Positions 30,065-60,827 of a DNA stretch of 64,000 bases are shown piece by piece (positions within the stretch are counted from its first letter, which is position 1; each line of letters opens with the position of its first letter). Source of the DNA: Candidatus Woesebacteria bacterium GW2011_GWA1_39_21 (GTDB lineage Bacteria > Patescibacteriota > Microgenomatia > UBA8517); the NCBI GenBank assembly GCA_000993685.1, contig LBWP01000002.1:7993-71992 (forward strand), read 5' to 3'. The notes under the pieces were generated by a model. That model was not told the DNA's origin and did no database searches. It was given only the letters and a program-made list of their open reading frames with translations. A program made the position numbers and the translations under genes.

Positions 30065-30085
30065 CCGAATAAAACCAATCCTGTT

Positions 30086-35603: not shown

Positions 35604-35679
35604 GGCCTGGTAACTCAGTGGTTAGAGTGCCATTCTTATAAAATGGAAGTCGATGGTTCGAACCCATCCCAGGCCACCA
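35604..35679 (+). tRNA. tRNA-Ile(UAU)
   Basis: Full cloverleaf GGCCTGG/CCAGGCC, D ACTC/GAGT, anticodon stem CCATT/AATGG with loop CT-TAT-AA, T arm GATGG-TTCGAAC-CCATC, A73, CCA; TGGTATAAT promoter upstream. Confidence 0.92.
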
Positions 35680-35709
35680 ATATTCTTACATGTCAAAACG
35701 AGGTTTTGT

Positions 35710-35752
35710 CATAAAGTCGATGTACTTGGTTCGACTCCAAGCGGCTCCACCA
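35710..35752 (+). pseudogene. Orphan tRNA 3' half starting at a CAU anticodon
   Basis: CAT-AA-AGTCG-ATGTA-CTTGG-TTCGACT-CCAAG-CGGCTCC-A-CCA; no matching 5' half seen. Confidence 0.8.
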
Positions 35753-36022
35753 AATTTTGATATGTCGAAGCTCTGCTTCGTCATAAAATCGAATTGGTCG
35801 TATCTATATAATCTTCAAGAAATATATAATGATTTAGTATTACCACCGATCGGATTTTTATTTTTTTGTAATATGGTTGGCATTTTGGGGAGTTTATAAT
35901 TTCTTTCTCTTGCCTAAAAAAATCTCTACAGAAAAATCACCTCGACTTTTGTCATTGACTTTTTATCTCTCACCCTAATTGACTTTTGTCTGTCTCGATT
36001 AATTTACACCAGAGAAGTTTCC

Positions 36023-36394
36023 TTGTTTGTTGTTTTGGTTTGTTTGATTGTACCGCTAGTATTTGTATATAAAAATAAAATATTTGCAAGGCTTGCAAAC
36101 TCAGTTTTTCAAGTAACGTGGATTTATTTTATAGCGAACTTTTTGGAGAACAAAAGTTTGATAATTGTATTATTTGTACTTGCGCACTTGCCAATATTAT
36201 TAGTAAAACACCTGGTAATGTTTTCGAAGTTATCAATATTAATCCTTTCTGTTTTTTATGGAATTGTGCTTATGTTATTGTTTACCAATTTTGATTTTCC
36301 CACAAATATTTTAATGGGAATAGCAATACATTTTTTAGGCTATTTGCTTTTTAGACCAATTGATCAAAGATTCAAGTTCAAAATTATCAACTGA
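36023..36394 (+). CDS. Membrane protein, probably the 3' part of a frameshifted gene starting near 35850
   Basis: Hydrophobic ORF; upstream hydrophobic coding-like frames joined across T-runs. Confidence 0.45.
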   Translation: MFVVLVCLIVPLVFVYKNKIFARLANSVFQVTWIYFIANFLENKSLIIVLFVLAHLPILLVKHLVMFSKLSILILSVFYGIVLMLLFTNFDFPTNILMGIAIHFLGYLLFRPIDQRFKFKIIN

Positions 36395-36435
36395 TAAGAG
36401 GAGTTTGAGGAATTTATAATTTTGTTGATTGTCGA

Positions 36436-37299
36436 TTAAAGTTCAACCAGTTCTTGTTTTTTTCCGGGTTGGGTTATCTCTGCGAGTGTGAGGTAGCGCT
36501 CAGTTGTAGAAAGCCTCTTGTGCCCTGATACTTGTGAGAGAAAGACAAGATCGACACCGGTTTTGAGGTTTTGGACAACGAAAGTTGTTCTTAAATCGTT
36601 AACAGTGTAACCTGGAATTTCTGCTTTCTGAAAGTATCTGTCGATTGCTGCTCTGATATTCCTTATTGCCAGCGGTTTTCCATTTTTGCTCACGAAAATA
36701 TATGGAGAATCTGACTTTGGCCGTTCATTAAGATATTTTTCCAACGTTAGTTTGGCTGACGAATTTAAGGGAATATCTCTTGATGCTTGAGTCGCATATG
36801 CATCAACGTGGACGGTTGCGTTTTTGATGTTTTCTTTCTTAAGCGCGGCAACTTCAGATATCCGTAGCCCGGTTTGGAGAATTAATTCTACGATTGCTGC
36901 AACTCTTGTGTCGTTTCTGACAACGTCGCGCAGAGCACGGTACTCAATTGCTGAAAGAAATTTTGGTGTTGAAGCTTCGATTTTGGGGTGGGAAACTGGG
37001 GAAGAGGGATCGCGTGAGGTGATTTTCTCATCCATGAGAAATCTGAAAAAGGTTTTAACGGCATTCAGTTTTCTTGAAACTGACTTTGGTGTATATTTTT
37101 GGGATAGCAGTTGATCACGAAAACCTTCAACATCGGTGGATTCGACAAGATCAGGCATCACTTTGTTCTTGCCGGTTAAATAGTCGACTAACTGTTCTAA
37201 ATCTGCTCTATAGGCTAGAATTGTTGAAGGCGATCTATTTTTATCTTTTAGGTTTTGGATAAATTTTGGCAGAAGATTTTTTAAGGTATCTTGTGGCAT
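36436..37299 (-). CDS. XerC/XerD-like tyrosine recombinase
   Basis: SPSTILAYRADL, TGLRISE, NDLRTT (HxxR variant), GH..STTERY. Confidence 0.88.
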   Translation of the reverse strand: MPQDTLKNLLPKFIQNLKDKNRSPSTILAYRADLEQLVDYLTGKNKVMPDLVESTDVEGFRDQLLSQKYTPKSVSRKLNAVKTFFRFLMDEKITSRDPSSPVSHPKIEASTPKFLSAIEYRALRDVVRNDTRVAAIVELILQTGLRISEVAALKKENIKNATVHVDAYATQASRDIPLNSSAKLTLEKYLNERPKSDSPYIFVSKNGKPLAIRNIRAAIDRYFQKAEIPGYTVNDLRTTFVVQNLKTGVDLVFLSQVSGHKRLSTTERYLTLAEITQPGKKQELVEL

Positions 37300-37496
37300 A
37301 GGTTAAAATATTGTTATATAGATTTTAATTTTCTGATCTTAAGAAAAATTAGCTATAGTCTACGCTTGTTGTTTGATTATATCTGTATTCTATAGGTTTA
37401 AAAAACATACCCAGGTTCAGTTTGGACAAAAACTGAAATTATTTGGGTATAATATTCGCAATATTAACACAACTTATAGTCTAAGGTCAATATATT

Positions 37497-37913
37497 ATGA
37501 GACATAACCGTTTAAGAAAGCAAGGGGAAAATACGAAGGAAAAGAGGACAAAAGACAGGCTAATGACATTTTTTTTAGTTATCTCGATAATTTTATTTGC
37601 GGGTTCAGTTACTCAGACGTCAAAAAAAATTGGAAAAGTAAATAAAGAGGTTAAGGATCGTGAGGAGCAACTTCGCAATCTTCAGAGCGAAGAAAAGAAG
37701 CTCGAAGAAAAATATCAAGAAGTCACAAGTAACGAATACATGGAAAAACAACTGCGCAACCAACTGAATTTGTCCAAAGAGAACGAGATTACACTGGTTC
37801 TCCCTGAAGACGAATTGTTGCGAAAACTGGTTCCAACGGATGATTTTGAGACGGAAGTGGATTTGACGCCAAATTATAAGAAATGGGCACGGGTCTTCGG
37901 TGTTGAGTTGTGA
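37497..37913 (+). CDS. FtsB/DivIC septum formation initiator
   Basis: TM + coiled coil + YMEKQLRNQLNLSKENE. Confidence 0.8.
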   Translation: MRHNRLRKQGENTKEKRTKDRLMTFFLVISIILFAGSVTQTSKKIGKVNKEVKDREEQLRNLQSEEKKLEEKYQEVTSNEYMEKQLRNQLNLSKENEITLVLPEDELLRKLVPTDDFETEVDLTPNYKKWARVFGVEL

Positions 37914-37916
37914 ATT

Positions 37917-38249
37917 TCAATCAGATTCGTTGGAATCGAAGAAGAAACCCTCTGGCGACAGCTCAAGACCGTTTGCTGTTTCTCTGTTTATTAGCAAACA
38001 TAAATTATTAATCTGCGATGGGCTATATCCTGTAATATCAGCTACCTTCTTACGGTCGAAACGTTTTCCCTCAGTGTTTTCAAACCAACTTGAATAGCAT
38101 CTGCAGAAAGCTTTCCATCTAGTCAGATCCGTTTCTTCCTTCGGCCAGTGAATTCTATACTCGTGCATTTTGTGGATTTTAACGAAGACTTTTGCTTTTG
38201 GATAGAGGACTTTTAAAAATAGACTTAAAAATGCGATTATGGCATGCAA
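37917..38249 (-). CDS. Hypothetical protein with possible HTH
   Basis: RKKVADITGYSPSQINN; start uncertain. Confidence 0.45.
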   Translation of the reverse strand: MHAIIAFLSLFLKVLYPKAKVFVKIHKMHEYRIHWPKEETDLTRWKAFCRCYSSWFENTEGKRFDRKKVADITGYSPSQINNLCLLINRETANGLELSPEGFFFDSNESD

Positions 38250-38296
38250 TGTTCGATCAAATTCCTTCTTGGTTAACGCTTAACCGTAAGTTTAAT

Positions 38297-38575
38297 TTAT
38301 TGTGTTGGAAACAGTCTCTGTCGTGAATGGTAGTATTTTCTGTCGCTCAACTCCCACAAAAGTCCATCAAGTAATCTTGAAGACTCGGGATTTGTATCAG
38401 TAAACGGATTTTTTTCAATGGGAAAAACCGGATTGTCCCTTAACATTTTCAACACCTTTTGTGCCTGAAAGATGGTATTAGTATATGTTGCTTTATCCAA
38501 TTTTTGCGTCTCGAATGCGTCTCCAATTAGATCATGTCTGACGGCTTTCTCTTTTCGTTCGTTGAAGCTGGACAT
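38297..38575 (-). CDS. Hypothetical protein
   Basis: ATG 7 nt after TATAAT; 92 aa. Confidence 0.55.
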   Translation of the reverse strand: MSSFNERKEKAVRHDLIGDAFETQKLDKATYTNTIFQAQKVLKMLRDNPVFPIEKNPFTDTNPESSRLLDGLLWELSDRKYYHSRQRLFPTQ

Positions 38576-38652
38576 GGCCGCAATTATAACATTGGATCAA
38601 AAGCAGAACAAATTATTGGAAAACATTGAAGCGTTATTATTTCCGTTTATTG

Positions 38653-38926
38653 TTGCGGGGTCAGGAGTTGGACCTGATCTGGAAGATTATGCACCTTCTT
38701 GTGTTACCACAAGGGTAGGACTATATCATCATCCCGGCTTTAATCGGGAGTTTGGCGTGTAGTCTCTACGGAGTCCAAAATAAAATATTTTAATTTTAAA
38801 AAGGTTCCCTCGGTATTGTCCTGACATAATCAGGGTGTCCACCGATATAGCCAAATTCTCATTTATAATTACTCATAAATGGGCCCATTTCTACTAGCCT
38901 TCCGTGCAGCCGTACACTACCCCGCA
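38653..38926 (-). tRNA. tRNA-Met(CAU), initiator-like acceptor, split by a group I intron
   Basis: 5' exon 38926-38896 (TGCGGGG..GAAGGCT) and 3' exon 38691-38653 (CATAATCTTC..CCCCGCA-A) join into a cloverleaf; no encoded CCA. Confidence 0.85.
38692..38895 (-). ncRNA. Group I intron (204 nt) between U33 and C34
   Basis: P1 with U-G at the 5' splice site (GGCT/GGCC); ATATCGGTGGA (P), CAATACCGAGGGAA (Q), CGTAGAGACTACACG (R), GATATAGTCC (S); terminal G. Confidence 0.9.
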
Positions 38927-39013
38927 TGTCAACGAACAAACCATATTATATTTACTTTATACTGTGAAAGCAACATGGAATTGTACCTGCGTGAATAGTA
39001 TAATATTACTTGA

Positions 39014-39694
39014 ATGGCAAAATTTGCACAAAAAATAGAAGCCAGAAAATTGAGAAGAAAAGGTCAAAGTATAAAAGGAATTGCAAAATCACTTAATGTT
39101 TCTCCAGCTTCAGTAAGTGAATGGTGTCATGATATCAGTCTTACTGTTAACCAGATAAAGATTTTAGAACTACACTCAAGGGATCCTTCTTATGGTAGAA
39201 GATTAACTTATTCATTAAAACAGAAGCAACAAAGGGTAGAAAAAACAAAAAGGTTAATGGAAGAAGGAAAAAAAGATGTTGGAATTTTAAGTGAACGCGA
39301 ACTTTTTATAGCTGGGATTGCTCTATATTGGGCTGAAGGGTTTAAGAAAGATAGTCAAGCTGGTTTGGCAAACCTTGATCCTTACATGATTAAATTTTTT
39401 ATTAGGTGGTTGAATGAATGTTTTCACTATCATGTTGACAATCTCATTTTGAGAGTAACTGTAAATATAAGTCATAAAGAGAGAATTAACGAGATTGAGG
39501 GATATTGGTCTACGGTTACAGGATTTCCTGTAGATAAATTTCAAAAACCTTTTTTTCAGAAGGTTTTGTGGAAAAAAGTATATGAGAACCCCAATGACTA
39601 TCATGGAATATTAAGAGTAAAAGTTAGGAAAAGCGTCGATTTTTTGAGAAGACTAAATGGTTGTATTGAAGGTTTGAGAATGACTACAGATTAA
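39014..39694 (+). CDS. HTH + LAGLIDADG-like (LYWAEG) putative endonuclease
   Basis: N-terminal HTH (SIKGIAKSLNVSPASVSEW), GIALYWAEG, NLDP.MIKFFIRWL; located between tRNA loci. Confidence 0.65.
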   Translation: MAKFAQKIEARKLRRKGQSIKGIAKSLNVSPASVSEWCHDISLTVNQIKILELHSRDPSYGRRLTYSLKQKQQRVEKTKRLMEEGKKDVGILSERELFIAGIALYWAEGFKKDSQAGLANLDPYMIKFFIRWLNECFHYHVDNLILRVTVNISHKERINEIEGYWSTVTGFPVDKFQKPFFQKVLWKKVYENPNDYHGILRVKVRKSVDFLRRLNGCIEGLRMTTD

Positions 39695-39711
39695 GATAAA
39701 ATACGTGTTAC

Positions 39712-39785
39712 GCCAGGGTGGCTCACTCGGTACCTGCCCGCAATCGCTAAAGCGATAGCCTTTTGCAGACGGGGAGCACAGGATT
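39712..39785 (+). pseudogene. tRNA 5' half with 41-nt palindromic insert in the D-loop
   Basis: GCCAGGG-TG-GCTC-ACTCGGTA[39733-39773]-GAGC-A-CAGGA-TT; acceptor strand pairs with CTCTGGC at 40015-40021. Confidence 0.7.
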
Positions 39786-39798
39786 AATCACAAAAATT

Positions 39799-39835
39799 GC
39801 CAACGTAGCTCAGCGGTAGAGCAATCGTTTCATAA
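39799..39835 (+). pseudogene. tRNA(CAU) 5' half ending at the anticodon loop
   Basis: GCCAACG-TA-GCTC-AGCGGTA-GAGC-A-ATCGT-TT-CAT-AA, then non-tRNA linker. Confidence 0.8.
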
Positions 39836-39846
39836 CACAAACATTT

Positions 39847-39918
39847 GCCAAGGTAGCTCAGTGGAAGAGCACGCGTTTCATAAGCGCGGTGTCGAGAGTT
39901 CGATCCTCTCCCTTGGCA
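39847..39918 (+). tRNA. tRNA-Met(CAU), elongator-type
   Basis: GCCAAGG/CCTTGGC, CGCGT-TTCATAA-GCGCG, GAGAG-TTCGATC-CTCTC, A73; followed by CAA, not CCA. Confidence 0.9.
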
Positions 39919-39950
39919 CAACAATTTTGAGACATATCAGAATTTTCTGC

Positions 39951-40025
39951 CATAAACCCGCGGTCGTGGGAGAGTAACCAATTTGTCTTAGGCGGGCGAA
40001 TTGTCGATTCCCACCTCTGGCGCCA
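39951..40025 (+). pseudogene. tRNA(CAU) 3' half with hairpin insert in the T-loop
   Basis: CAT-AA-ACCCG-CGGTC-GTGGG-A[~32 nt]TCGATT-CCCAC-CTCTGGC-G-CCA. Confidence 0.7.
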
Positions 40026-40090
40026 GTTTTATCTCCCAAAATGCTTCAAGCCATTTCTCTTTAGTAATTTATTAAGATATAATTCGCTGC

Positions 40091-40363
40091 ATGAAAGCCA
40101 TTAAACAGTTTGTTGAGGAATTAGTAAAGAATAAGGAGAGAGTACTTAAAAGAGAAATTTCAGATATGGAGGCACGGGTTATTCTGGCTGAAAGCGGGAA
40201 ATTTCCTGAGATGAATGAAGAGCTAAGACTAAGAGCAATAGCTTCGAGCGCCGAACATAGGAACAAAGGAACGCTTTTGGGAAGACAAAAATATATTTTA
40301 GATGGAGAAAAGCAGTTAAGGGCAATTATTTTGGGAAAAGAAAGAGATCGAGAGGGGGATTAA
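40091..40363 (+). CDS. Hypothetical helical protein
   Basis: ATG 7 nt after TATAAT; 90 aa. Confidence 0.55.
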   Translation: MKAIKQFVEELVKNKERVLKREISDMEARVILAESGKFPEMNEELRLRAIASSAEHRNKGTLLGRQKYILDGEKQLRAIILGKERDREGD

Positions 40364-40438
40364 TTACGAAAAGAGTATCGCAGCTTAATTGTCTTTCCAT
40401 TTCTTTACTGGTATAATAATTCTCACAATTTAACAAAA

Positions 40439-40709
40439 GCTGCGAAGGGATTGATTGGGATCCTGGAGCTGAATAGGCATTAGTCTATTACGGAGGCGAA
40501 ACCGTAAAAGTCAGCAGCAATTGTCGCGCAAGCGGAGATTGTATCAAATAAGGTTTATTCATTGATATAACTCTTCTTCCGAAGAGTTTTTTAATGGATC
40601 GACAAAACAAGGTGGCAACGTCTTTTAGCTGTTAGCAGTTGGAGTTTAGAAATTAGTTAGAAGGCCCTTGTTTGATCATCATATTTTGGTGGTTAAGCAA
40701 GGGCTTTTT
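40439..40709 (+). promoter_or_regulatory. Trp T-box riboswitch with ultrashort Stem I and intrinsic terminator
   Basis: GA-motif GCTGCGAAGGGAT..ATCCTGGAGC with TGG (40456-40458) in the apical loop; T-box AACAAGG-TGGCAAC (40613-40619) pairs with CCTTGTT; terminator GCCCTTGTTTGATCA..TGGTTAAGCAAGGGC-TTTTT; promoter TTGTCT..TGGTATAAT. Confidence 0.85.
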
Positions 40710-40711
40710 AT

Positions 40712-40921
40712 ATGAAAGAAAATTGTAAAACGTGTGGAGGAAAAGGTGTTATAGATATTGCACAAACTTGGCATGAACTAACGCTATGGTGTCCAAAGTG
40801 CGAAAGGGAAAAATTCGAACATGCGAGTGAGGTTTATATAAAAAAATATGGAATTGACAATTCGAAATCATTGATAAGTTTGGGAAATGAGATGGACGTA
40901 CAAAACAAAATGGAAGATTGA
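40712..40921 (+). CDS. Small zinc-ribbon protein
   Basis: CKTCGGKG..CPKC. Confidence 0.6.
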   Translation: MKENCKTCGGKGVIDIAQTWHELTLWCPKCEREKFEHASEVYIKKYGIDNSKSLISLGNEMDVQNKMED

Positions 40922-40971
40922 TAAATTGGTTTTATAAAATTTATATGTTTATAGTAAGATAGTAATCAATT

Positions 40972-42027
40972 ATGAAAAAACGAATATTATCAGGAATTAG
41001 AGCCACCGGCAGGCTTCATTTGGGAAATTATCTTGGAATGATTAAAGGAATGCTTACTCTTCAAGATGATCCCGAGTATGAAGTTTTCTTCATGGTCGCA
41101 GATTTGCACGCACTAACGACTCCGTTTGATCCGAAAACGTTGGGACCAAACTCCAGAGACGTTGTTTTGGACTATCTTGGCGCAGGTCTTGATCCGGAAA
41201 AAGCGTCGGTTTTTATCCAATCGCACGTTCGAGAACACGTCGAACTTTCCTATCTGTTTTCGACTGAAGTGACAATTGCGAGGTTGGGTCACTTACCAAC
41301 CTACAAAGACAAGCTTAAACAGTTTCCGGAAAATAATACCTTGGCGCTTTTGTACTACCCGGTTTTAATGGCTGCAGATATTTTGCTTTATAAAACGGAA
41401 CTTCTTCCGGTCGGGGATGACCAGCTGCCACATCTTGAGATCTCTCGCGAAATTGCAAGAAAGTTTAATGAAAAATACGGGATGGATTTCCCGGAGCCGG
41501 GACAAATTAAAACAGAAGGACATTACGTTCCATCGCTAACGGGAGAAGGAAAGATGAGTAAGTCGGTAGAAGGGAGTTACATTAATCTGACTGACGATTT
41601 GACGACAATTAAGGAAAAGTTGGCAATAGTTCCGACAGACTCTGGAAAAGGTAAAATCGAAACTCAAAACTCAAATGTCAAAAGTCAAAATGACAACTCA
41701 AAACTCAAAATTTATAAATCTGGAGGAATCGAGTCGAAGGGGATATCTGCATTAATGGCACTGGTAGACTTATTTGAAGGTGAAGAAAAAAGAAAAGAAT
41801 ATGAAGAGAAATATTTGGGAGAGGGTGTTCGGTACGGTAATTTGAAAAATGAACTAGCTGAAGAAATTTATAAAGAACTTGAGCCGATTCAAGCGCGAAG
41901 GAAAAAGTACGAAGACGATCCGGATTTGGTAGAGAAAATCTTAAAAGACGGTGCCGAAAAAGCTCGAAAAATCGCCAAGGAAACAGCCAGAAGATTTGGA
42001 AGGAAAACAGCTTCCTTTTGTTATTAA
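40972..42027 (+). CDS. trpS: Tryptophanyl-tRNA synthetase
   Basis: SGIRATGRLHLGNY, YPVLMAADIL, PVGDDQ, KMSKS. Confidence 0.96.
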   Translation: MKKRILSGIRATGRLHLGNYLGMIKGMLTLQDDPEYEVFFMVADLHALTTPFDPKTLGPNSRDVVLDYLGAGLDPEKASVFIQSHVREHVELSYLFSTEVTIARLGHLPTYKDKLKQFPENNTLALLYYPVLMAADILLYKTELLPVGDDQLPHLEISREIARKFNEKYGMDFPEPGQIKTEGHYVPSLTGEGKMSKSVEGSYINLTDDLTTIKEKLAIVPTDSGKGKIETQNSNVKSQNDNSKLKIYKSGGIESKGISALMALVDLFEGEEKRKEYEEKYLGEGVRYGNLKNELAEEIYKELEPIQARRKKYEDDPDLVEKILKDGAEKARKIAKETARRFGRKTASFCY

Positions 42028-42208
42028 TCTGGAAAAAAAGAAAATCGGCCTGGAGGGTGATCATTCTGAAGGGATGATGTTAATGGCTGTGGCGTCAAAA
42101 AAGGAAATGGGGCAGGATCCGGTAAAGGTTGGCGAGGAAGAAGTTGACGAGTATCCAATTTTGTTCGACCTTCCCGAGAAAGTTTCAAACGGAACAAGAG
42201 TAATGTAG
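41984..42208 (+). pseudogene. C-terminal half of a CsaA/Trbp111-like tRNA-binding OB protein
   Basis: PEDLEGKQLPFVINL..SEGMMLMA..VSNGTRV; N-terminal half missing, overlaps the trpS end out of frame. Confidence 0.7.
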
Positions 42209-42416
42209 GGAATTTGAGTTTACGCGTAAGAGGAAGGAAGTGGAAAATTTCTTTGTATTCTCCATACTTATACTTCCTACAACAACGAATTCTTACATGT
42301 TATAATTCAGCTTGTTTACAGGGAGACTTGTTACTTTACGTAAACGGGTGGAAGTGTTTTGTGGTAAGATAACTGCTACTTCTGTCTCAGGCAGAGATTA
42401 GGTTTCCAAAAATATT

Positions 42417-44354: not shown

Positions 44355-44378
44355 CAGGAGGTAAGACAGCGTAGACAA

Positions 44379-44960: not shown

Positions 44961-45038
44961 TAGCGTATTATACACATTATGACTTGCACTCGTGGGGTTT
45001 GGACATCAAAGATTGTTGAAAAAAAATGACAAAAATAT

Positions 45039-45623: not shown

Positions 45624-45844
45624 TTAATAATAAGTGTAACAAAGTCTTCGAGCTGAATATATATTGGGTTGAACAATATTCAGAAATTCTTCAGCAGCTT
45701 GATTAGATGTGGTCATTTCACCTGTCATTTGGGTTATTGTATATTACAGGGATTTTTTCGGGTAAAATACAGAAGTGGAGTAAAAGAACAAGAGGGTGAA
45801 AGAGTAAAAATATATGAGCGGAAATGTAAATGGAGGTGTAGAAA

Positions 45845-47260
45845 ATGTCTAAACTTATACTTATAGATGGGAATGCGATTATGCATCGGGCGTATCACGC
45901 ACTGCCTCCGCTGACGACAAAATCCGGCGAGCCGATTAATGCTGTTTACGGTTTTATCTCGATGCTTTTGGGGATAATAGCTGATATGAAACCGACGCAT
46001 CTTGCAGTATGTTTTGACAGACCCGAAAAAACTTTTCGCAGGGAAAAATATATCCACTACCAAGCCCAGCGGCCGGAAATGGATGATTTATTGGTTACTC
46101 AAATAACCAAAATGCACGGTGTTTTGCAAGCTTTTAAAATTCCTGTTTATGAAAAAGCCGGATATGAGGCGGATGATTTGCTTGGCACAATTGCCAAGCA
46201 AACTCAAAACTCAAATGTCAAAAGTCAAAATGAAAAATCAAAACTTAAAATTGATGAAACAGTGATTGTAACTGGAGATAGGGATATCTTTCAGTTGATT
46301 ACTAAAAAAGTCAAAGTATATTTCCCGATAAAAGGAATTAAGGAAGGAAAATTATACGGCGTTTCTGACGTCAAACACGAATTTGATTTTGAGCCGATTA
46401 AAATGATTGACTACAAATCTCTGGTGGGGGATTCTTCAGATAATTACCCCGGAGTTACCGGAATAGGTCCAAAAACGGCGATTGGTTTACTGAACAAATT
46501 TCAAACAAAACAAAACATTTATAAACACCTTGAAGACATTCCGGAAAAAACCAGGACAAAATTAGAGCAGGGAAAAGATATGGCAGACATGTCGTACGAC
46601 CTGGCGACAATCCGCACAAATGTTCCAGTTGAGGTAGACATCAAAAAAATGGGCGATTGGGATTTGGGGAGCATGGAGGCAATAAGGCTTTTTATGAGTT
46701 ATGGTTTTAGAACCTTGCTTGGAAGAATTACAAACGGGAACGAAGTGGCGAAAGTTGCAGCCTTAAAAAAAGACCTGAAGAAAAGAGACGTTGAAGAAGT
46801 AGCAATTGTTTTGGCTAAAAAATTAAAAAATGGTCAATTTGCAATACGCGGAACAGCAAATATGGTTTTGCAAGGTCTGGATATGGGTGTAGCCGATATT
46901 GATTTAATTGCAGATAAAGATACCGCGCTTTCGATGAATAAAATATTTAATAAAGAGCTATTGGAAGAGGTGAAGTTTTCAGAAGCGGACAAGTTCAGAT
47001 CGTACTTCGGAAAGTTTGTTATAAAAGGCGTTTTGGTAGAGATGATGGGAGAATTTCAAGTCAAAGATAAAAATGGTGTGTGGAGCGAAAAATTGGACGC
47101 TTCGGAGGATGAAGTCGTTGAAATAAAAATTGCTGGAAATAAAGTAAAAGTTACGAGACTGGATTTAGAAATGAAATTTTCAGCAATGATGGGCCGCTTC
47201 AACGAGTTAAATAAAATTAAGAAACAGGTTGACTTGAAGCTACAGGGAAGCTTGTTTTAA
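45845..47260 (+). CDS. 5'-3' exonuclease (PolA N-terminal/FEN) fused to a nucleotidyltransferase-like domain
   Basis: LIDGN..RAYHA, YEADD, TGDRD, GDSSDNYPGVTGIGPKTA; C-terminal IRGTA..DIDL; ends QGSLF. Confidence 0.85.
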   Translation: MSKLILIDGNAIMHRAYHALPPLTTKSGEPINAVYGFISMLLGIIADMKPTHLAVCFDRPEKTFRREKYIHYQAQRPEMDDLLVTQITKMHGVLQAFKIPVYEKAGYEADDLLGTIAKQTQNSNVKSQNEKSKLKIDETVIVTGDRDIFQLITKKVKVYFPIKGIKEGKLYGVSDVKHEFDFEPIKMIDYKSLVGDSSDNYPGVTGIGPKTAIGLLNKFQTKQNIYKHLEDIPEKTRTKLEQGKDMADMSYDLATIRTNVPVEVDIKKMGDWDLGSMEAIRLFMSYGFRTLLGRITNGNEVAKVAALKKDLKKRDVEEVAIVLAKKLKNGQFAIRGTANMVLQGLDMGVADIDLIADKDTALSMNKIFNKELLEEVKFSEADKFRSYFGKFVIKGVLVEMMGEFQVKDKNGVWSEKLDASEDEVVEIKIAGNKVKVTRLDLEMKFSAMMGRFNELNKIKKQVDLKLQGSLF

Positions 47261-47261
47261 T

Positions 47262-49451: not shown

Positions 49452-49524
49452 CTTTGCTTGGCATTGCCGACGGGCCAACGCTGACGCGTAAGCGCTACGA
49501 GTAGATCCACTTGCTAAAAATTAT

Positions 49525-49622
49525 TGAATTCATCTGCGAAAACCACGGACTTTAGTCCGTGGATGAAGCAAGAATCCAATCTCGTCGACAAAATACCATG
49601 GGCTTTAGCCCGTGGTAGTAAT
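49525..49622 (+). mobile_element. Non-autonomous IS200/IS605-type element, copy B, within the recF 5' end
   Basis: TTAT 49521-49524; CCACGGAC-TTTA-GTCCGTGG followed by ATGAA; CGACAAAATACCAYGGGCTTTAGCCCGTGG shared with copy A. Confidence 0.7.
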
Positions 49623-50714: not shown

Positions 50715-50761
50715 CGTCGGAGCTATAAAAAAACTTCAAAGATTGTCGATAAAATATATAC

Positions 50762-51085: not shown

Positions 51086-51130
51086 GGAAAATTTAAAGAT
51101 AAATATTATAATTTATTATATCATCTTAAT

Positions 51131-51994: not shown

Positions 51995-52003
51995 ACTATT
52001 TTC

Positions 52004-53476: not shown

Positions 53477-53561
53477 GAAGACAATCTGATTATTATGTTT
53501 TGTAGGATGAATGTCAATATTGTTTTTTCCGCACAATCCCCGTAAGATTAGGGGTTAGATA

Positions 53562-54626: not shown

Positions 54627-54650
54627 ATCGTTTCTGAAATGGCAAGTTAT

Positions 54651-54689
54651 AACAGCTTTCAAGAAGACCCCGATTTAATCGGGGATGAA
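54651..54689 (+). mobile_element. Isolated IS200/IS605-type left end
   Basis: TTAT|AACAGCTTTCAAGAAGA-CCCCGAT-TTA-ATCGGGG-ATGAA. Confidence 0.6.
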
Positions 54690-54725
54690 TAGTGTTTTAA
54701 GATTTACGTTCGATTTTCATAAATT

Positions 54726-54929
54726 ATGAGTCCAAGTGATCCACAGTTTTTATATCTTGTTTTGGTTTTGCCGGCGTTGTTTGGAATAACGATGCTTGGC
54801 GATGGGATCAATAAACTGGCTCATAAAAATAGTGGCGGTTATATAACTCTGGTTTTTGGAATTTTGTTTTTTTTGCTCGTTGTTTTTGGATATATCTTCT
54901 TTTCAACCTACCTTTTGGGGTCAGGTTAA
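54726..54929 (+). CDS. Small two-TM membrane protein
   Basis: 67 aa, two hydrophobic helices. Confidence 0.65.
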   Translation: MSPSDPQFLYLVLVLPALFGITMLGDGINKLAHKNSGGYITLVFGILFFLLVVFGYIFFSTYLLGSG

Positions 54930-54936
54930 GGTTTAT

Positions 54937-55129
54937 AACAGCTTTCAAGAAAACCCCACCCTTAAGGGCGGGGGTGACCCGCCTGCTTAGCTGCGCAAGC
55001 TGCGGGCTGGATTGAACTCTGAAAATGCGTATGAAGAGTCAAGCTTTGCTTTTGATAAAGTCTTAAGCTTTGCTTATATATCATCCCCCTTGGGGAAACC
55101 CCCGCTTTTTTAAGCGGGGAGAATGTCAT
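54937..55129 (+). mobile_element. Non-autonomous IS200/IS605-type element with left and right ends
   Basis: TTAT|AACAGCTTTCAAGAAAA-CCCCACCC-TTAA-GGGCGGGG ... CCCCGCTT-TTTT-AAGCGGGG-AGAATGTCAT. Confidence 0.7.
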
Positions 55130-55210
55130 AAAAACCAGCCACAATAGTTTATTGGAGATTAGACAAAAAGATTAGTAGAATGATTTTTAATTTTGTATAA
55201 TGCGGATAAT

Positions 55211-56950
55211 ATGACCTTCTTTGAACTGACTAAATATTTGGAAAAGTTGGAAAAAACTTCTTCACGGCTTGAAATAACACAAATCCTTGCCGACCTTTTT
55301 AAGAAGTCAAAAGTCGACGAGATTGATCGAATTGTCTATCTCACTCTGGGAAGCCTCGCCCCGAATTATCGGGGAATGGTCTTTAATATCGCCGATAAAA
55401 TAATGCTTCAGATTATTGCTAAGGCATGTGGTATTGATGCCGGAAGGGTTCGGGAAAGTTACAAAAAGGAAGGCGATTTGGGCGTTGTAACAGAAAAATT
55501 GTTGGAGAGCGGCAAACAGAAAAACTTCAGCAGTAAGATAACAGTTGGTGAAATTTATGAGGAACTCTTTCAGATTGCCCAGGATGAAGGCGGGGGGAGC
55601 GTAGATCGAAAAATTGATCAGATGGCACGGCTATTGGGAAAGGTCGATCCGCTTTCCGCAAGGTATTTGGTTAGAATTCCTGTTGGCAAACTGCGTTTGG
55701 GGTTTTCCGACAAAACGGTTATAGATGCGCTCTCGTGGATGGAAACGGGGAGTAAAGTCAAGAATAAAATTATTTCGGAAGCATACAACATCCTGCCGGA
55801 CGTTGGTCTTTTGGCAAAAAAAGTCAGGCGGGAAGGTATCGATAAAGCCTGTGAGAATGTTTTACCTATTGTTGGAATCCCCGTTCTTCCGATGCTTGCA
55901 CAGCGACTAAAAAGTCCTACAGAAATGATTGAGAAAATGGGGAAAGTATATGTCGAGCCGAAATTTGATGGCTTGAGAGTTCTTGTACATTTTCAGAAGT
56001 CTAAAGATAAATCTGGACACGATTTGGTCAAAGCTTTTACGCGAAATTCAAATGACGTGACGGAAATGTTTCCCGAGATTCTTCGTGTTGGGGAGTTTAT
56101 CAACGCTGGTGCGGTGATTTTGGACAGCGAGGCCGTGGGAATGGACCCGCAAATGAAGTTACTTGCCGATTTTCAAACAACCATGAAAAGAAGAAGAGTC
56201 CACCAAATCGATTTAACGGCAAAAGAAATTCCGCTTCGTTTCCAGATTTTTGATGTTTTATATAAGGACGGGGAAAGTTTGATGGATCGCCCGTACAAAG
56301 AACGGAGAAATATTCTCGAAAAACTATTTAATGATAACAAACTTTTTGTCGTAGATGAAAAGGTAGAAACGTCGGATCCCGAGGTTATCAACGAGCAATA
56401 TCGAAAAAGAATTAAAGAGGGTTTGGAAGGTGTGATTGTTAAAAAGATTGACGCAAAATATGTCGCCGGAAGAACTGGTTGGCGTTGGGTTAAAATGAAG
56501 CAGGAAGAACAGTCTCAAGGAAAGCTTTCAGATACCGTAGACGCTGTGGTTATGGGCTATACACTCGGAAAAGGGAAAAGAGCGGGCTTTGGGGTCGGTC
56601 AATTTTTGGTTGGAGTGGTTGAACCGTCGGGAAATATTAAAACCTTAACGAAGATTGGTACGGGTTTGACCGACGAACAATTTAAAGAGCTGGCAAAAAG
56701 ACTTACGAAACTAAAAATTGGTCAAAAGCCTAAAGAATATGAAGCGCATAAAAATTACACACCGGATTTTTGGGTCGTGCCAAAGCTCGTTGTTGAACTT
56801 GCCGGTGATGACTTAACAAAAAGTCCGACGCACACGAGCGGCTACGCGCTTCGTTTTCCCAGACTGGTAAACTTCAGAGATGACAAGTCGGTTTCACAAG
56901 CAACAACGGTGGGGGAAGTGGTGAAGCTCTTTAAACTTCAGAGAAAATAG
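55211..56950 (+). CDS. lig: ATP-dependent DNA ligase
   Basis: EPKFDGLR, ILDSE, FDVL, EGVIVK, WVKMK, LRFPR..RDDK. Confidence 0.95.
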   Translation: MTFFELTKYLEKLEKTSSRLEITQILADLFKKSKVDEIDRIVYLTLGSLAPNYRGMVFNIADKIMLQIIAKACGIDAGRVRESYKKEGDLGVVTEKLLESGKQKNFSSKITVGEIYEELFQIAQDEGGGSVDRKIDQMARLLGKVDPLSARYLVRIPVGKLRLGFSDKTVIDALSWMETGSKVKNKIISEAYNILPDVGLLAKKVRREGIDKACENVLPIVGIPVLPMLAQRLKSPTEMIEKMGKVYVEPKFDGLRVLVHFQKSKDKSGHDLVKAFTRNSNDVTEMFPEILRVGEFINAGAVILDSEAVGMDPQMKLLADFQTTMKRRRVHQIDLTAKEIPLRFQIFDVLYKDGESLMDRPYKERRNILEKLFNDNKLFVVDEKVETSDPEVINEQYRKRIKEGLEGVIVKKIDAKYVAGRTGWRWVKMKQEEQSQGKLSDTVDAVVMGYTLGKGKRAGFGVGQFLVGVVEPSGNIKTLTKIGTGLTDEQFKELAKRLTKLKIGQKPKEYEAHKNYTPDFWVVPKLVVELAGDDLTKSPTHTSGYALRFPRLVNFRDDKSVSQATTVGEVVKLFKLQRK

Positions 56951-57053
56951 AGACATCACACGAACACAATTTACACTTCTAAACTAGAACGCAAAAAAGA
57001 TGTGTCTAATATGGTGGGTATTGGGGGTTGGAATATGATAGGATGAAGGTAGT

Positions 57054-58019
57054 ATGTCGTATCTTCTTCTAGCACTAATTGTTATTTTTTCCGTCGTTTT
57101 GATTAAGTCGGCGGACATGACGGTTGTTGGGTTGCGGAAAGTGACAGGGCGGGCGCATTTAATTGGTCTGACCGCGATCATTGTTGCAATTGGAACATCT
57201 TTTCCGGAATTCTTCGTAGCGATTACATCTGCGATCGAAAATAAACCACGTTTATCTTTGGGAGTTGCACTTGGCTCGAATATCGCCAATATTGCCCTCA
57301 TTGGTGCCGGATCAGCAATTCTTTCCGGTAGGGTCTCAATTTCCGAAAAGGTGATGAATAAAATTGTCTGGATTAGTTTAATTTGTGGAATGCTTCCATA
57401 CGCTCTTCTTTTAGACGGCAGTCTAAGCAGGGTAGATGGAATTATTATGCTTTTAGTTTATGCGGCATACATCCTTAGTTTTTTCCGACAATATAACGAA
57501 CGGGCGCAGGAGGAATACCAAAAAGGCATCTCGTTTACAAAATTAATTCGTAAAATTGAGCATTTTGCGGAAGATAAATGGAGGAGCATCGCGGCAATTT
57601 TTATTGGAATTTCTTTAATGCTTTTTTCTGCAGACACGATCGTCAAGTTTTCGAACCTTTTAGCCGAAAGGGTCAACATTCCGATTTTTGTGATCGGACT
57701 TTTTATCTTGGCGATCGGAACGTCGCTTCCCGAGTTTGCATTTTCTTTAAGATCGCTAAAAGATCATGAGCCACAGATGTTTATTGGAAATCTTTTGGGG
57801 TCAGTGGTTGCCAATACGACTTTAGTCATCGGAACATCTGTCTTGATTAGTCCAATATATTCGCTTAATGTTTCAAGTTATCTAGTCCCAGGTTTAACTT
57901 TTGTTGCCGTTTATCTTCTTTTTTATTACTTCATCCGAACAAAAAGTAGATTGGAAAGATGGGAAGCCGGGATTTTACTTTTAATTTACATTGTGTTTTT
58001 TTTGATAGAATTAAGGTAG
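57054..58019 (+). CDS. Ca2+/Na+:cation antiporter (YrbG-like)
   Basis: Two alpha repeats GTSFPE/GTSLPE, GSNIAN/GSVVAN. Confidence 0.92.
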   Translation: MSYLLLALIVIFSVVLIKSADMTVVGLRKVTGRAHLIGLTAIIVAIGTSFPEFFVAITSAIENKPRLSLGVALGSNIANIALIGAGSAILSGRVSISEKVMNKIVWISLICGMLPYALLLDGSLSRVDGIIMLLVYAAYILSFFRQYNERAQEEYQKGISFTKLIRKIEHFAEDKWRSIAAIFIGISLMLFSADTIVKFSNLLAERVNIPIFVIGLFILAIGTSLPEFAFSLRSLKDHEPQMFIGNLLGSVVANTTLVIGTSVLISPIYSLNVSSYLVPGLTFVAVYLLFYYFIRTKSRLERWEAGILLLIYIVFFLIELR

Positions 58020-58091
58020 TCCCGGTTGGATAGCACAAAGTGCATCCAACGGGATCCCGTGAGATAGCTTGAAAAGCTTATCTCACTGGGA
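58020..58091. repeat. Two abutting bulged palindromes in opposite orientation
   Basis: TCCCGgTTGGATaGCAC-AAA-GTGCATCCAACGGGA then TCCCGTGAGATAGCTT-GAA-AAGCtTATCTCACtGGGA. Confidence 0.7.
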
Positions 58092-58106
58092 GGGGGTGAG
58101 TAAGTT

Positions 58107-58442
58107 ATGGCTGATGATAAAAAAGGTGTAACAGGTCTTCCCAAAAATACGGCAGGGGCACTGTCTTATGTTTTAGGGCCCTTATCAGGAGTGGTTTTTC
58201 TGATTCTCGAGAAGGATCCGTTTGTTAAATTTCACGCAATGCAGTCGATTGTTGTTTTTGGAGTGATCTTTATATTGCAGTGGGCTTTTGCAATAACAAT
58301 TTTCCTTGCTCCTTTAAGCGGTCTTTTAGCAATATTGGCTTTTGTGGCGTGGCTAATGCTAATTTATAAAGCGTGGAGAGGTGAAGAGTGGGAAGTTCCG
58401 CTTTTGGGGAAATACGCAAGAATATTTGTTAAGAAGGTCTAA
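58107..58442 (+). CDS. DUF4870-like membrane protein
   Basis: ALSY..FVKFHAMQS..KAWRGE..VPLLG; RBS GGGGGTGA. Confidence 0.85.
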   Translation: MADDKKGVTGLPKNTAGALSYVLGPLSGVVFLILEKDPFVKFHAMQSIVVFGVIFILQWAFAITIFLAPLSGLLAILAFVAWLMLIYKAWRGEEWEVPLLGKYARIFVKKV

Positions 58443-58595
58443 ACGGTTTGCTGATGGTGAGTAAGGTGGGACGGGTCATTCGCCGGATATTGTTTTGTCG
58501 GTTTTGAAGTAAGCACTAAGACTGACAGCTGATTATTTTTAAGAATACTGCATAAACCTCTGAAAGAATCTGACTGCTTAAAAAGTCGGGAAAAG

Positions 58596-59267
58596 ATGAT
58601 TAAAACCATCAGGGATGAGTATGGTTTAGTCTCCCCGCAAGTGCTTGGTGTAATGTTGAAAGTTCCACGGCACGAATTTGTCCCAAAAGGGTTTCAAAAA
58701 GTTGCTTACGAAGACAAGCCGATCGAAATTGGTTTTGGGCAGACGATGAGCCAACCTTACACTGTTGCAATGATGACACATCTTGCAACAGAAATTCCAA
58801 ATACCAAATACCAGTTTTCAAACAGATTGCAAAATACAAATAGAACGAGTGGTAAGATAAAAAGACGTAAAGTTTTGGAAATTGGAACAGGGTCGGGTTA
58901 CCAGGCGGCGCTTCTGTCTTATTTTTTTGACGAGGTTTATACAATAGAAATCATTCCCCAATTGTCGGAATTTGGTAGAAACAATCTTTTCCGGTTGGGG
59001 TATAAAAATGTTTTCGTCAGAGAGGGAAGCGGAGAATACGGATGGAAAGAAAAATCTCCTTTTGACGCAATAATAATTACCGCCGCACTTGAGAAAGACC
59101 TACCGCCAGTTCTGAAAACCCAACTTGTTAAAGGTGGAATTTTAGTGGCCCCGATTGGACCGCGGTATTCGCAGGTTATGACCAGATTTGCGAGGTTAAA
59201 AAACGGGAAATTTAAAAAGGAGGAATTCCAGAAGTTTGTTTTTGTACCTTTTGTAAGAAACGAATAA
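58596..59267 (+). CDS. pcm: Protein-L-isoaspartate O-methyltransferase
   Basis: VPRHEFV, GQTMSQP, VLEIGTGSGYQAA, PFDAIIITAA, FVP. Confidence 0.93.
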   Translation: MIKTIRDEYGLVSPQVLGVMLKVPRHEFVPKGFQKVAYEDKPIEIGFGQTMSQPYTVAMMTHLATEIPNTKYQFSNRLQNTNRTSGKIKRRKVLEIGTGSGYQAALLSYFFDEVYTIEIIPQLSEFGRNNLFRLGYKNVFVREGSGEYGWKEKSPFDAIIITAALEKDLPPVLKTQLVKGGILVAPIGPRYSQVMTRFARLKNGKFKKEEFQKFVFVPFVRNE

Positions 59268-59332
59268 AAATCACCGATATCGTAGGGTGAAAATTATTTA
59301 AATCGGGGATTAACCTGACGTTTCAATTTTAT

Positions 59333-59374
59333 TCAAACTGCGCCAAAACCGTGGACTCTTAGTACACGGATGAA
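59333..59374 (+). mobile_element. Degenerate IS200/IS605-type left end
   Basis: TTAT(59329)|TCAAACTGCGCCAAAA-CCGTGGACT-CTT-AGTACACGG-ATGAA. Confidence 0.5.
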
Positions 59375-59479
59375 AGGAGGGAGCGATCAAATGGTTCTGC
59401 CAGCTCACCATCTTAAGTAAAAACTGAAGAACTTGTTAAGCCCAAAGGGCGAGAATACAGAGGGCTTTTCCTCGGTAGT

Positions 59480-59776
59480 TTATTTTCCAGGTTCAAAGGG
59501 GGTTATGATTTCAGCTATTACTTTAATTCCCGCTTTTCCCAACTGTCCTTCTTGCACTTTCAAAAATCCATCAACCGCCTTTTTATTTTCCGCCGGAGTG
59601 CCTCCATAGCGGCTACCGATAAATACACGTTTTATTTTATTCGTTTCAGTGGAAACAGCTCTGGGTGTGTTAAAAAGGTTGTTGGGATCTTCTATTATTG
59701 CTTCAAGCGTGACACCTAAACCTTCTTGTTCTTTTCCTGTTGAGATTCGGATTGGTGGATAAGTAGTTTTCGCCAT
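59480..59776 (-). CDS. Hypothetical protein
   Basis: RBS AAGGGGTGA, 98 aa. Confidence 0.6.
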   Translation of the reverse strand: MAKTTYPPIRISTGKEQEGLGVTLEAIIEDPNNLFNTPRAVSTETNKIKRVFIGSRYGGTPAENKKAVDGFLKVQEGQLGKAGIKVIAEIITPFEPGK

Positions 59777-59828
59777 CTTTTATCACCCCTTTTTTAATTA
59801 AAACCGATTATAGTTTAAAATAGTTATT

Positions 59829-60389
59829 ATGCAACTAATAGTAGGACTTGGTAATCCAGGGGAGAGGTACAAAAATGCAAGACACAATACAGGGTTTTTA
59901 GTTTTAGAAAAAATAAAAACCGAATTAGCCAAATCGCAATTTTCAATTTCCAAACAAATAACAAATAACAATTTTCGGGAGGAAAACAGGTTTAAGGCCG
60001 AAGTATTGAAACTGGGCAATGTAATGTTAGCAAAACCCACAACGTTTATGAATGACTCCGGCCTTGCAGTTTCAAAAATCGCTAATTTTTATAAGATTGC
60101 TCTGGGTGATATCTACGTTATTCACGACGATTTGGACCTTCGTTTGGGCGAATACAAAATTCAAAAAGGAGTTGGTCCAAAACTGCATTACGGAATTGCG
60201 TCAATAGAAGAGAAACTTGGAAGTAAGGATTTTTGGAGAGTGCGGGTTGGTATTGACAGCAGAACGGTCGAAAACAGATTGTCTGGCGAAGAGTATGTTT
60301 TGCAAAATTTTAATGAGCAGGAAGAGGAAGTTTTTGAGGCGACTCTGGAAAGATTAACAGATGAGTTATTTAAAATGATTTTTAAGTGA
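59829..60389 (+). CDS. pth: Peptidyl-tRNA hydrolase
   Basis: LIVGLGNPG, RHNTGF, KPTTFMNDSG, IHDDLD, RVRVGI. Confidence 0.96.
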   Translation: MQLIVGLGNPGERYKNARHNTGFLVLEKIKTELAKSQFSISKQITNNNFREENRFKAEVLKLGNVMLAKPTTFMNDSGLAVSKIANFYKIALGDIYVIHDDLDLRLGEYKIQKGVGPKLHYGIASIEEKLGSKDFWRVRVGIDSRTVENRLSGEEYVLQNFNEQEEEVFEATLERLTDELFKMIFK

Positions 60390-60395
60390 ATTTAA

Positions 60396-60698
60396 ATGAC
60401 GGGTGCAAAAACATTTTCTACGGTCGGCGATGTTTTACAAAAATTCAATAAAAATGAAGACAAATACATCAGCCGCGAATTTCAGAAGTATGCTTACGGT
60501 CTTGCGAGAGAGTTGAATGATTTGGAACATAAATCGCTCTACATGAGATTGGCTAAAAATACCCCGAGGCCGCTTCTTGAAGTTGCTCGAAGTTTTGTCA
60601 AAGATGCTTATCAAGTAAAATCAAAAGCCAGATTGTTTATGTGGAAGCTTGCGAAGCTGAAAAGCGAGAAAGTTGACACACAAGAGGGGCGCAGGTAA
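60396..60698 (+). CDS. Conserved hypothetical protein
   Basis: ISREFQ.Y..LA.ELND..HKSLYMRLAK..LFMWKL. Confidence 0.75.
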   Translation: MTGAKTFSTVGDVLQKFNKNEDKYISREFQKYAYGLARELNDLEHKSLYMRLAKNTPRPLLEVARSFVKDAYQVKSKARLFMWKLAKLKSEKVDTQEGRR

Positions 60699-60827
60699 TA
60701 ACCGAGAACTCTTATGTGGAAGCTGAGCGAGTTAAGACGAGCGAAGCGCTCACTCAAGAGGAGTTGAGCGAAGCGAAAATCTCTTATCTGGAGGTTAAAG
60801 AAATTGAAAGAAGAAAATAATTCTTAA
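60637..60827 (+). repeat. Three tandem variants of the gene's 3' end separated by conserved hairpins
   Basis: TTAT junctions at 60637, 60712, 60784 give FMWKLAKLK, LMWKLSELR, LIWRLKKLK; linkers CAAGAGG..CGARAA(T)CTCTTAT. Confidence 0.7.

Follow-up and report, generated by a model that had tools for sequence, protein, structure and literature searches.

The window analysed here is a stretch of 64,000 nt of contig LBWP01000002.1 from Candidatus Woesebacteria bacterium GW2011_GWA1_39_21 (genome G000), the genome of which is 1.04 Mb in size and 92% complete. At three of its loci, i.e., a tRNA-Ile gene, a tRNA-Met gene, and a conserved gene for a protein of 100 amino acids, an intact gene is accompanied by stacked partial copies and hairpins. 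A preliminary description of this DNA combined these stacks with five dispersed elements, each consisting of TTAT and a hairpin, into one system that replaces gene ends at the tetranucleotide TYAT. All of the features named there are present at their positions, with the qualification that the hairpins are of uneven strength, and the stack layout is real and differs among the relatives of the source genome within the candidate phyla radiation (CPR), which are Woesebacteria and other Microgenomates (G numbers denote genomes, and L numbers denote compared loci). The features are nevertheless three separate things, namely, dispersed palindrome-associated transposable elements (PATEs), tRNA cassettes, and gene-end units; a single system does not account for them, since the gene-end units have another fold and are cut at TTA/T (the slash marks the cut). 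The features described below are on the forward (+) strand unless otherwise stated.

The tRNA-Ile locus begins with an intact tRNA-Ile(UAU) gene (35604 to 35679), the cargo of the youngest cassette, whose 76 nt are identical to the cassette-borne tRNA of G371; the left arm of this cassette is lost here, and G371 keeps both the left arm and the 5' half of the host tRNA. The right part of the cassette (35680 to 35712) contains a trailer, the core (ACATGTC), hairpin 2 (DNA z-score = -3.2), and the end GTCAT. It is followed by the displaced 3' half of an older tRNA-Ile(UAU) with another type of acceptor stem (35713 to 35752), an orphan T arm with CCA; the same half occurs in L163, and an intact tRNA of this type occurs in L126. 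The right part of an older cassette (35753 to 35784) then contains the core GATATGTC, as in PATE family A, hairpin 2 (DNA z-score = -5.0), and again the end GTCAT. The last piece (35785 to 35792) is a stub that agrees with the first bases of a third kind of tRNA-Ile 3' half, and these bases are also found in the intact tRNAs of L148, L155, L162, and L163; because the stub is only 8 nt long, its assignment is weak. The junction tetranucleotides start at 35636 (TTAT) and at 35709 and 35781 (both TCAT). The UAU anticodon is rare and is also found at the same locus in relatives, and no gene of the TilS family was found in the source genome. The Ile stack is not an assembly artefact, as it is spanned by a single contig of run X3 (35400 to 38643, without difference) and by another of run X6 (35400 to 35814); the two runs belong to different studies, that of X3 being the study of the possible source. 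A separate metagenome contig (L186) is identical to the stack over the approximately 540 nt compared. At the tRNA-Met locus, contigs break at the repeated 5' halves yet overlap.

The tRNA-Met stack extends to both sides of its intact gene and includes two orphan tRNA 5' halves upstream that were absent from the preliminary description. The outer half (39712 to 39788) contains an unrelated hairpin in the D loop (39733 to 39773); its acceptor strand pairs at 7 of 7 positions with 40015 to 40021, and the intact type is found in L226. Adjacent to it lies the left arm of an older cassette with the orphan 5' half of its tRNA-Met cargo (39789 to 39833; the half occupies 39799 to 39833), i.e., an orphan D arm, of which the intact type is found in L090 and the 3' half in L077 and L343. 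The youngest Met cassette (39834 to 39953) consists of a left arm (39834 to 39846), the intact tRNA-Met (39847 to 39919), a trailer, the core (39931 to 39938), a weak hairpin (DNA z-score = -0.6), and the end GCCAT; it is likely a hybrid of two right ends, and the complete nested form is found in G371 and G003. The displaced 3' half of the outer tRNA-Met (39954 to 40025) closes the stack. It has a hairpin in its T loop (39971 to 40003), of a class that recurs at three other tRNA remnants. The junction tetranucleotides start at 39830 and 39878 (TCAT) and at 39950 (CCAT).

Judged from their pairing and from the layout in relatives, the tRNA stacks are the remains of cassettes of approximately 110 nt, each of which carried a whole tRNA with the anticodon of its host and was nested in the anticodon loop of an older tRNA gene. 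They are not swapped 3' ends, as was initially proposed: the acceptor strands of the spare 3' halves do not pair with the 5' half of the intact gene and are of other tRNA types that are intact in relatives (L126, L090, and L226), so that the intact tRNAs cannot be completed by these halves. Relatives show whole tRNAs nested in split older tRNAs in the full order of old 5' half, TNAT, left arm, whole tRNA, core, hairpin, GYCAT, and old 3' half. Two cassettes are nested in the tRNA-Ile(UAU) of G002 (L164), and G371 has clean nests at both the Ile and Met loci. The core motif together with an orphan half was detected by script in 8 of 27 tRNA-Ile(UAU) loci of relatives, and a ninth was recognized by eye. 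An independent pattern applied to 139 genomes gave 17 matches versus 6 for the control, with 4 of the 17 loci having already been examined in the earlier locus comparison. Eleven of these matches are orphan 5' halves of tRNA-Met, tRNA-Ile(UAU), or tRNA-Ile(GAU), and in all 11 an intact tRNA with the same anticodon follows the cassette arm. A looser pattern was matched 48 times in 46 of the 301 genomes of the class that were scanned, which is about the control level; outside the source genome, only four of these were real by eye (two in G170 and one each in G152 and G239).

The tRNA cargo occupies the loop of either hairpin, and cargo-free copies of approximately 40 nt also exist (L140 and L077). 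The same cargo is found in different hosts: the tRNA-Ile of the window is that of G371, although the xer genes of the two genomes are only 69% identical, and G001, which is of the same genus, has a plain tRNA-Ile of another type. The shared cargo suggests horizontal movement, with the caveat that tRNAs are conserved in any case. The 28 genomes (of 121) that gave a match showed no tRNA-Ile cassette outside its own locus, which is a limited test. The match between cargo and target likely reflects survival, perhaps together with a preference for the anticodon stem-loop.

A trans-spliced or intron-split tRNA was considered and rejected, because the halves flank an intact copy, decay, and show no bulge-helix-bulge motif by eye. 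Flanking tRNA fragments with other classes of hairpin, some of them at the T loop, were also observed elsewhere in the source genome beside tRNA-Val(GAC), -Lys(UUU), -Ser(CGA), -Tyr, -Trp, -Ile(GAU), -Arg(CCG), -Ala(CGC), and -Leu(UAG) (G000 contigs C1, C2, C9, C10, C13, C18, C22, and C27). In L158 (1569 to 1740), at least three tandem units each consist of a tRNA-Ile 3' end from the T loop onwards behind a hairpin, and L162 (1370 to 1500) contains a split tRNA-Ile with a cargo-free frame that is inverted relative to the neighbouring intact tRNA.

The third stack lies at the conserved gene for the 100-residue protein, which follows pth (60396 to 60698) and whose last approximately 19 codons are provided by gene-end unit 1. 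This gene is found in 59 of 61 genomes; its product matches no Pfam or NCBIfam family, and its Atlas clusters are without a name. Unit 1 (60640 to 60714; 75 nt) consists of a replacement C-terminus, an arm complementary to the start of the unit (60667 to 60686), hairpin 2, and the end CTCTTA. Unit 2 (60715 to 60786; 72 nt) is a displaced older replacement end, and the following segment without arm or hairpin (60787 to 60827) is the likely original gene end, which resembles the ends of uninserted relatives. The junction TTAT starts at 60637, 60712, and 60784. Without a stack-specific query, such units were found in 9 of 66 gene ends of relatives (seven full and two partial); two further unit-bearing genomes were found by pattern, one of which has four units (L137). 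The units start at TTA/T or TCA/T, supply a new C-terminus, and hold an arm complementary to their own start. In this arm, positions +1 to +4 are paired in 12 to 13 of 13 units, and positions +5 and +6 are mostly unpaired; from +7 to +14, 83 of 104 positions are paired versus a mean of 66 when the arms are shuffled among the units (0 of 5000 shuffles; the 13 units are related).

The units are more similar between genomes than the genes that bear them. Unit 1 is 84% identical to the unit of L136, whereas the gene cores are 62% identical, and unit 2 and the working end of L137 share 89% identity, whereas the gene cores are 69% identical. One genome uses as its working end a unit that another genome has as a spare. 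On the gene tree the stacks are scattered, with 11 changes, at least five of which are forced (the bootstrap is not fully settled). The near end is likely the newest, because the farthest copy usually lacks the arm and is similar to uninserted relatives. Hence, the earlier proposal that insertion at TYAT pushes the old end downstream holds for the protein gene, and the comparison of orthologous loci bears out that arrangements vary among relatives rather than being fixed. The recurrence of this layout in relatives indicates that the stack is real; its units are true replacement ends of 72 to 75 nt. Cargo-free elements with the gene-end signature occur at the gene end and at the anticodon of tRNA-Ile (L005, L148, and L168) and also inside a family A core; these elements begin with bases other than T, and therefore the cut would be TNA/T. 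A census of the base after hairpins of the gene-end type (T in 53 of 88) is noisy and was not used, and a duplicated gene piece in G033, a candidate stack, proved to be a scaffold gap. The circular folds of the two window units are weak under DNA parameters (-0.7 and -5.1 kcal/mol).

The displaced units keep the reading frame open to the stop codon, and up to four are stacked (L137), as would be expected if hosts benefited from a cassette system that stores spare gene ends and tRNA variants for switching. The stack is, however, missing from 57 of 66 gene ends and the frame from 18 of 27 Ile loci, the displaced tRNA halves decay and gather other inserts, the protein is least conserved in its replaced tail, and no alternative order is seen in contigs at the tRNA loci. 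We therefore regard such a system as very unlikely; nothing shows the adaptive cassette array of the preliminary description, and the elements are likely selfish rather than a device for host diversification.

The five dispersed elements are ordinary gene-less derivatives of IS200/IS605, i.e., PATEs, and belong to four families of approximately 100 to 200 nt. They comprise one copy each of family D (13641 to 13757), family B (49521 to 49622), and family C (59329 to 59483), a left end only of family A (54647 to 54690), for which no right end was seen by eye, and a family A copy with further hairpins inserted in its core (54933 to 55129), which combines the outer frame of the tRNA cassettes with IS200/IS605 guides and subterminal hairpins. 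The family B copy overlaps the start of a recF-like open reading frame (ORF) and covers its first codons in frame. In all five left ends, TTAT precedes the AAAA or AAGA guide and hairpin by 12 to 14 nt and the hairpin itself by 16 to 18 nt; the right ends are TTAT (13757), TAAT (49622), TCAT (55129), and TTAT (59483). For 34 of the 46 left-end-like hairpins of the genome, the AAAA or AAGA guide is preceded by TTAT at a distance of 10 to 16 nt, against a background of 6%. A general enrichment of TYAT at hairpins, which was expected from the preliminary description, is not observed among 7731 perfect hairpins of the genome (TTAT, 57 versus 60.1 expected; TCAT, 23 versus 31.5; CCAT, 23 versus 23.8).

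A clean family A copy consists of TTAT, a stem with the left guide and hairpin, the core GATATGTC, a second stem with the right guide and hairpin, and GTCAT. The target is TTAT and the guide AAxA in 31 of 35 copies each, AT follows the hairpin in 34 of 35, and the spacer is 13 nt in 32 of 35; at the right end, for which the search pattern itself fixed GAAA and AG, T follows GTCA in 29 of 30, giving a TCAT end. In IS608, according to the available portions of the structural and targeting studies, the cleavage motif is paired at its positions -3, -4, and -1 with the guide, and triplets are formed by two bases that follow each hairpin (PMC3201880, PMC5934647). Family A follows the IS608 rules for target, guide, and triplet bases, and the 3' end of a plasmid-borne TnpB gene matches its right end. 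IS200 tnpA is present in 12 of 124 genomes of the family, some with ends like those of families A to D (L487, L488, L493, L494; L276). In G410 (L485, L496 to L513), 28 IS200 tnpA matches, many of them identical, represent a recent burst with a TTRA-like target.

The tRNA cassettes share the core, the end (GTCAT), and two outer stems with family A, their loops being occupied either by a tRNA or by a few bases. Of 30 Woesebacteria loci, 21 contain the strict core motif, and in G360 a whole family A copy lies within the anticodon of tRNA-Ile. Family A is found in 4 of the 7 genomes with an orphan-half cassette versus 12 of 117 others (p = 0.005, although kin are not independent). Because of the common core, end, and stems, the copy in G360, and this co-occurrence, the tRNA cassettes likely descend from PATE family A, so that the IS200/IS605 link suggested in the preliminary description is stronger than could be seen there, the frame of the cassettes being the outer frame of family A. 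To judge from complementarity, a cassette strand joined end to start would fold into a closed dumbbell, in which two mismatches enclose a helix of 4 bp. Covariation between A:T and G:C at the frames was rejected as a set of five independent changes; it is partly an effect of orientation, because family A frames occur reversed.

This dumbbell resembles a folded recombinase site, and the junctions are ambiguous within the shared AT or TTA. Integron integrases act on folded attC, and a gene for an Xer-like tyrosine recombinase (36436 to 37299, - strand) is a conserved neighbour of tRNA-Ile, the enzyme of which was proposed earlier to integrate the folded single strands; tyrosine integrases also disrupt tRNA genes in tRNA-dependent lysogeny, according to the accessible text on this subject (PMC10865867). 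This gene, however, adjoins tRNA-Ile in 29 of 34 loci whether or not a stack is present and is not near tRNA-Met, tRNA-Ile(GAU), or the protein gene. Its product scores 47 bits against a cut-off of 265 bits for integron integrases and shows NDLR where HxxR is expected, with the catalytic Arg and Tyr being kept, and no 11-bp binding site common to the arms was recognized by eye. The Xer-like gene is thus likely outside the system, and we consider its participation highly improbable.

We lean towards the reading that the stacks are nested remains of gene-less hairpin elements of 35 to 120 nt, which carry a working replacement, insert at T-N-A-T in genes, and are moved as single-stranded circles by an IS200-type Y1 transposase acting in trans. 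TnpA of the IS200 type is the best-supported enzyme because of the descent from family A and the cognate tnpA genes in relatives. According to this mechanism, family A would have lost both subterminal hairpins, one of which was replaced by a tRNA; the outer stems would fold the excised strand into a closed dumbbell that unites both ends; and TnpA arriving on a complete IS200 element would cut and join the single strands. Inserts in a single-copy tRNA or protein gene would survive only with a cognate replacement, base pairing of their arm may direct the gene-end units to their site, and the units would travel between genera.

Several observations weigh against transposition by TnpA in trans. 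Subterminal palindromes, guides, and triplet bases, which TnpA requires in IS608, are missing from the cassettes, and at the cassette ends the IS608 guide pair at -4 is found in 15 of 25 cases, whereas a plain helix pair with the core at -3 is found in 23 of 25 (both strands and related copies are included in this count, which is partly an effect of orientation). Exact family A right ends are missing from the cassettes of G002, G406, and G375. The fold of the gene-end units is distinct from that of the tRNA cassettes, and their cut is TTA/T and not after the complete TTAT; no IS-bearing or longer relative of this fold was found in 301 genomes and in viral contigs, and their hairpins fold no better than shuffled sequences (DNA z-scores of -1.5, -1.3, and +0.2). 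As for the enzyme, the search for tnpA(Y1) proposed in the preliminary description revealed no intact IS200 tnpA or TnpB gene in the 92%-complete source genome. Its sole Y1-like gene (L001, 1267 to 2628) encodes a fusion in which the catalytic tyrosine is apparently missing; the Y1 domain resembles that of REP-associated tyrosine transposases (RAYTs) and is joined to an SH3-like domain and a membrane segment. Searches of relatives, metagenomes (3 real of 97 matches), and viral contigs revealed no cassette with an ORF; the viral scans gave 4, 2, 68, and 0 matches, none with the architecture, and 12 viral matches to the family A right end were without the core. Finally, no joint at any TYAT was found in the contigs of four runs, although contigs drop rare forms. 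A system of repetitive extragenic palindromes (REP/REPIN) mobilized by RAYT was rejected, as the Y1 genes at 29 loci of relatives are flanked by other short palindromes.

That no enzyme gene was found in any cassette also raises the question of whether a dedicated enzyme is needed at all, as hairpin-triggered template switching could make the inserts, and natural transformation with homologous recombination could spread entire loci from lineage to lineage. An arm that mirrors the unit start could come from fold-back copying, and identical tandem units exist (L006). On the other hand, the same tRNA cargo is found in different host tRNAs and the same host half after different cassettes (window versus L146 versus L163), three tRNA species have their junctions at the same place in the anticodon loop, cargo-free copies occur at TTAT sites outside tRNA genes (L140), and the frame belongs to a transposon-derived family. 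Template switching therefore appears unlikely as the source of the stacks.

A somewhat less unlikely candidate is found among the small GIY-YIG nucleases, which we take to be SLX1-like. These would nick the folded single strands, with host ligase and repair finishing the reaction, and the gene-less cassettes would be parasites of nuclease-carrying cassettes in tRNA genes. Among 30 loci with small GIY-YIG genes (L309 to L338, many of them from Woesebacteria), 18 lie within 300 nt of a tRNA or tmRNA, and the source genome has one such gene beside tmRNA. In L320, L334, and L335, a tRNA is followed by a hairpin, the nuclease, and a displaced tRNA end, and the 5' version is seen in L321 and L326. 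The hairpins at these loci, however, belong to other families, and none of the GIY-YIG genes is inside an Ile or Met anticodon cassette or a gene-end unit (6 matches in 181 loci, all outside; 0 in 17 loci). Hairpins of the gene-end type behind the nuclease in L311 and L319 look incidental because they fill a site that is empty in G000. Ssn nucleases cut single-stranded DNA next to a hairpin, and no strand-joining activity is reported for them in the available text (PMC11893778). This alternative is still improbable in our opinion.

Two further observations concern other parts of the window. Three tandem genes for the large subunit of ribonucleotide reductase follow nrdR (25325 to 32227), and a low-complexity repeat of 59 nt, with 92% identity, is present in two unrelated ORFs (41660 to 41718 and 46200 to 46258).

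If transposition by TnpA in trans is correct, the stacks would show how gene-less elements of approximately 100 nt can colonize conserved protein genes and tRNA genes present in a single copy while the host survives, and by what route tRNA genes cross genera of ultra-small bacteria. The link to PATE family A makes the missing enzyme directly testable, as the transposase class is known and short oligonucleotides suffice. If the arm of the gene-end units is a guide, they would represent a natural DNA-guided insertion of small cargo without double-strand breaks. The stacks are also a warning that tRNA fragments beside CPR tRNA genes are fossils, neither split tRNAs nor phage attachment scars. A more far-reaching interpretation, which we put forward tentatively and hold to be less probable, is that Woesebacteria contain minimal DNA-programmed elements that have shed the hairpins bound by the IS200/IS605 enzyme, close into dumbbells of single-stranded DNA, recognize their site through an internal DNA arm or the anticodon stem-loop, and, across genera, overwrite in series the C-terminus of a core protein and tRNA genes of single copy; they would be either a natural equivalent of IS608 retargeted by engineered base pairing or what a hitherto undescribed single-stranded DNA recombinase acts on.

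In the literature consulted, mostly the main texts of open-access articles, no description was found of gene-less cassettes of approximately 100 nt that serially replace tRNA genes or a protein end. Integrative elements such as islands in tRNA genes and the prophages e14 and 21 in icd restore their target gene with their own copy of its 3' end. As in the stacks, the old end is left downstream of the new one, a description that also fits the gene-end units and the T-loop remnants observed here; in contrast, the gene-end units are 72 to 90 nt long, have no integrase, and contain an arm complementary to their own start. A cassette array of the integron type differs in that the recombinase near the stacks scores far below integron integrases (47 versus 265 bits) and the junction core is AT or TTA instead of the GTT of attC. 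In the tRNA-dependent lysogeny of actinobacteriophages, as far as the available text describes it, integration destroys the host tRNA gene and a carried tRNA of the same isotype rescues the host (PMC10865867). The tRNA cassettes likewise disrupt a tRNA gene and carry a tRNA whose isotype is the same; they differ in being gene-less, serially nesting cassettes of approximately 110 nt and not a whole phage with a tyrosine integrase and attP, and no ORF, such as the tyrosine integrase that a phage or island carries, was found in any tRNA cassette examined.

The Ssn nucleases with their NTS/SRM hairpins are similar in that small GIY-YIG genes are tied to hairpin repeats acting in single-stranded DNA, and the NTS contains GTCAT; the main text of that report, in the part available, makes no mention of tRNA (PMC11893778). 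In the NTS, GTCAT is 5' of the hairpin and the cut is upstream, whereas here GTCAT ends the element 3' of the hairpin. IS608 and other members of IS200/IS605 insert 3' of a motif of the T-T-A-N type, and family A follows their guide and triplet rules; in engineered IS608, according to the accessible parts of the same studies, DNA-DNA pairing on the upstream side of the target motif can serve to extend the targeting (PMC3201880, PMC5934647). The arm of the gene-end units is instead complementary to downstream DNA, and the hairpin-less frames fail the end rules of IS608. The PATEs of Haloquadratum, gene-less derivatives of IS200/IS605, are the closest to the five dispersed elements of the window: in the portions of the report available, both have near-terminal palindromes and a short target motif and have no terminal inverted repeats, target duplication, or transposase (PMC3119063). 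Terminal-only forms of 52 bp may be mobile according to the same source, insertions persist where the tnpA genes are broken, and neither cargo nor replacement of a target gene is described in those portions. The tRNA cassettes keep only the outer frame of PATEs without palindromes and guides and carry a complete tRNA, and for the gene-end units neither subterminal palindromes with guides nor a related transposase-bearing element was found. The logic of replacement is thus already known from tRNA-dependent lysogeny and end-restoring integrative elements, and the parts are known from PATEs.

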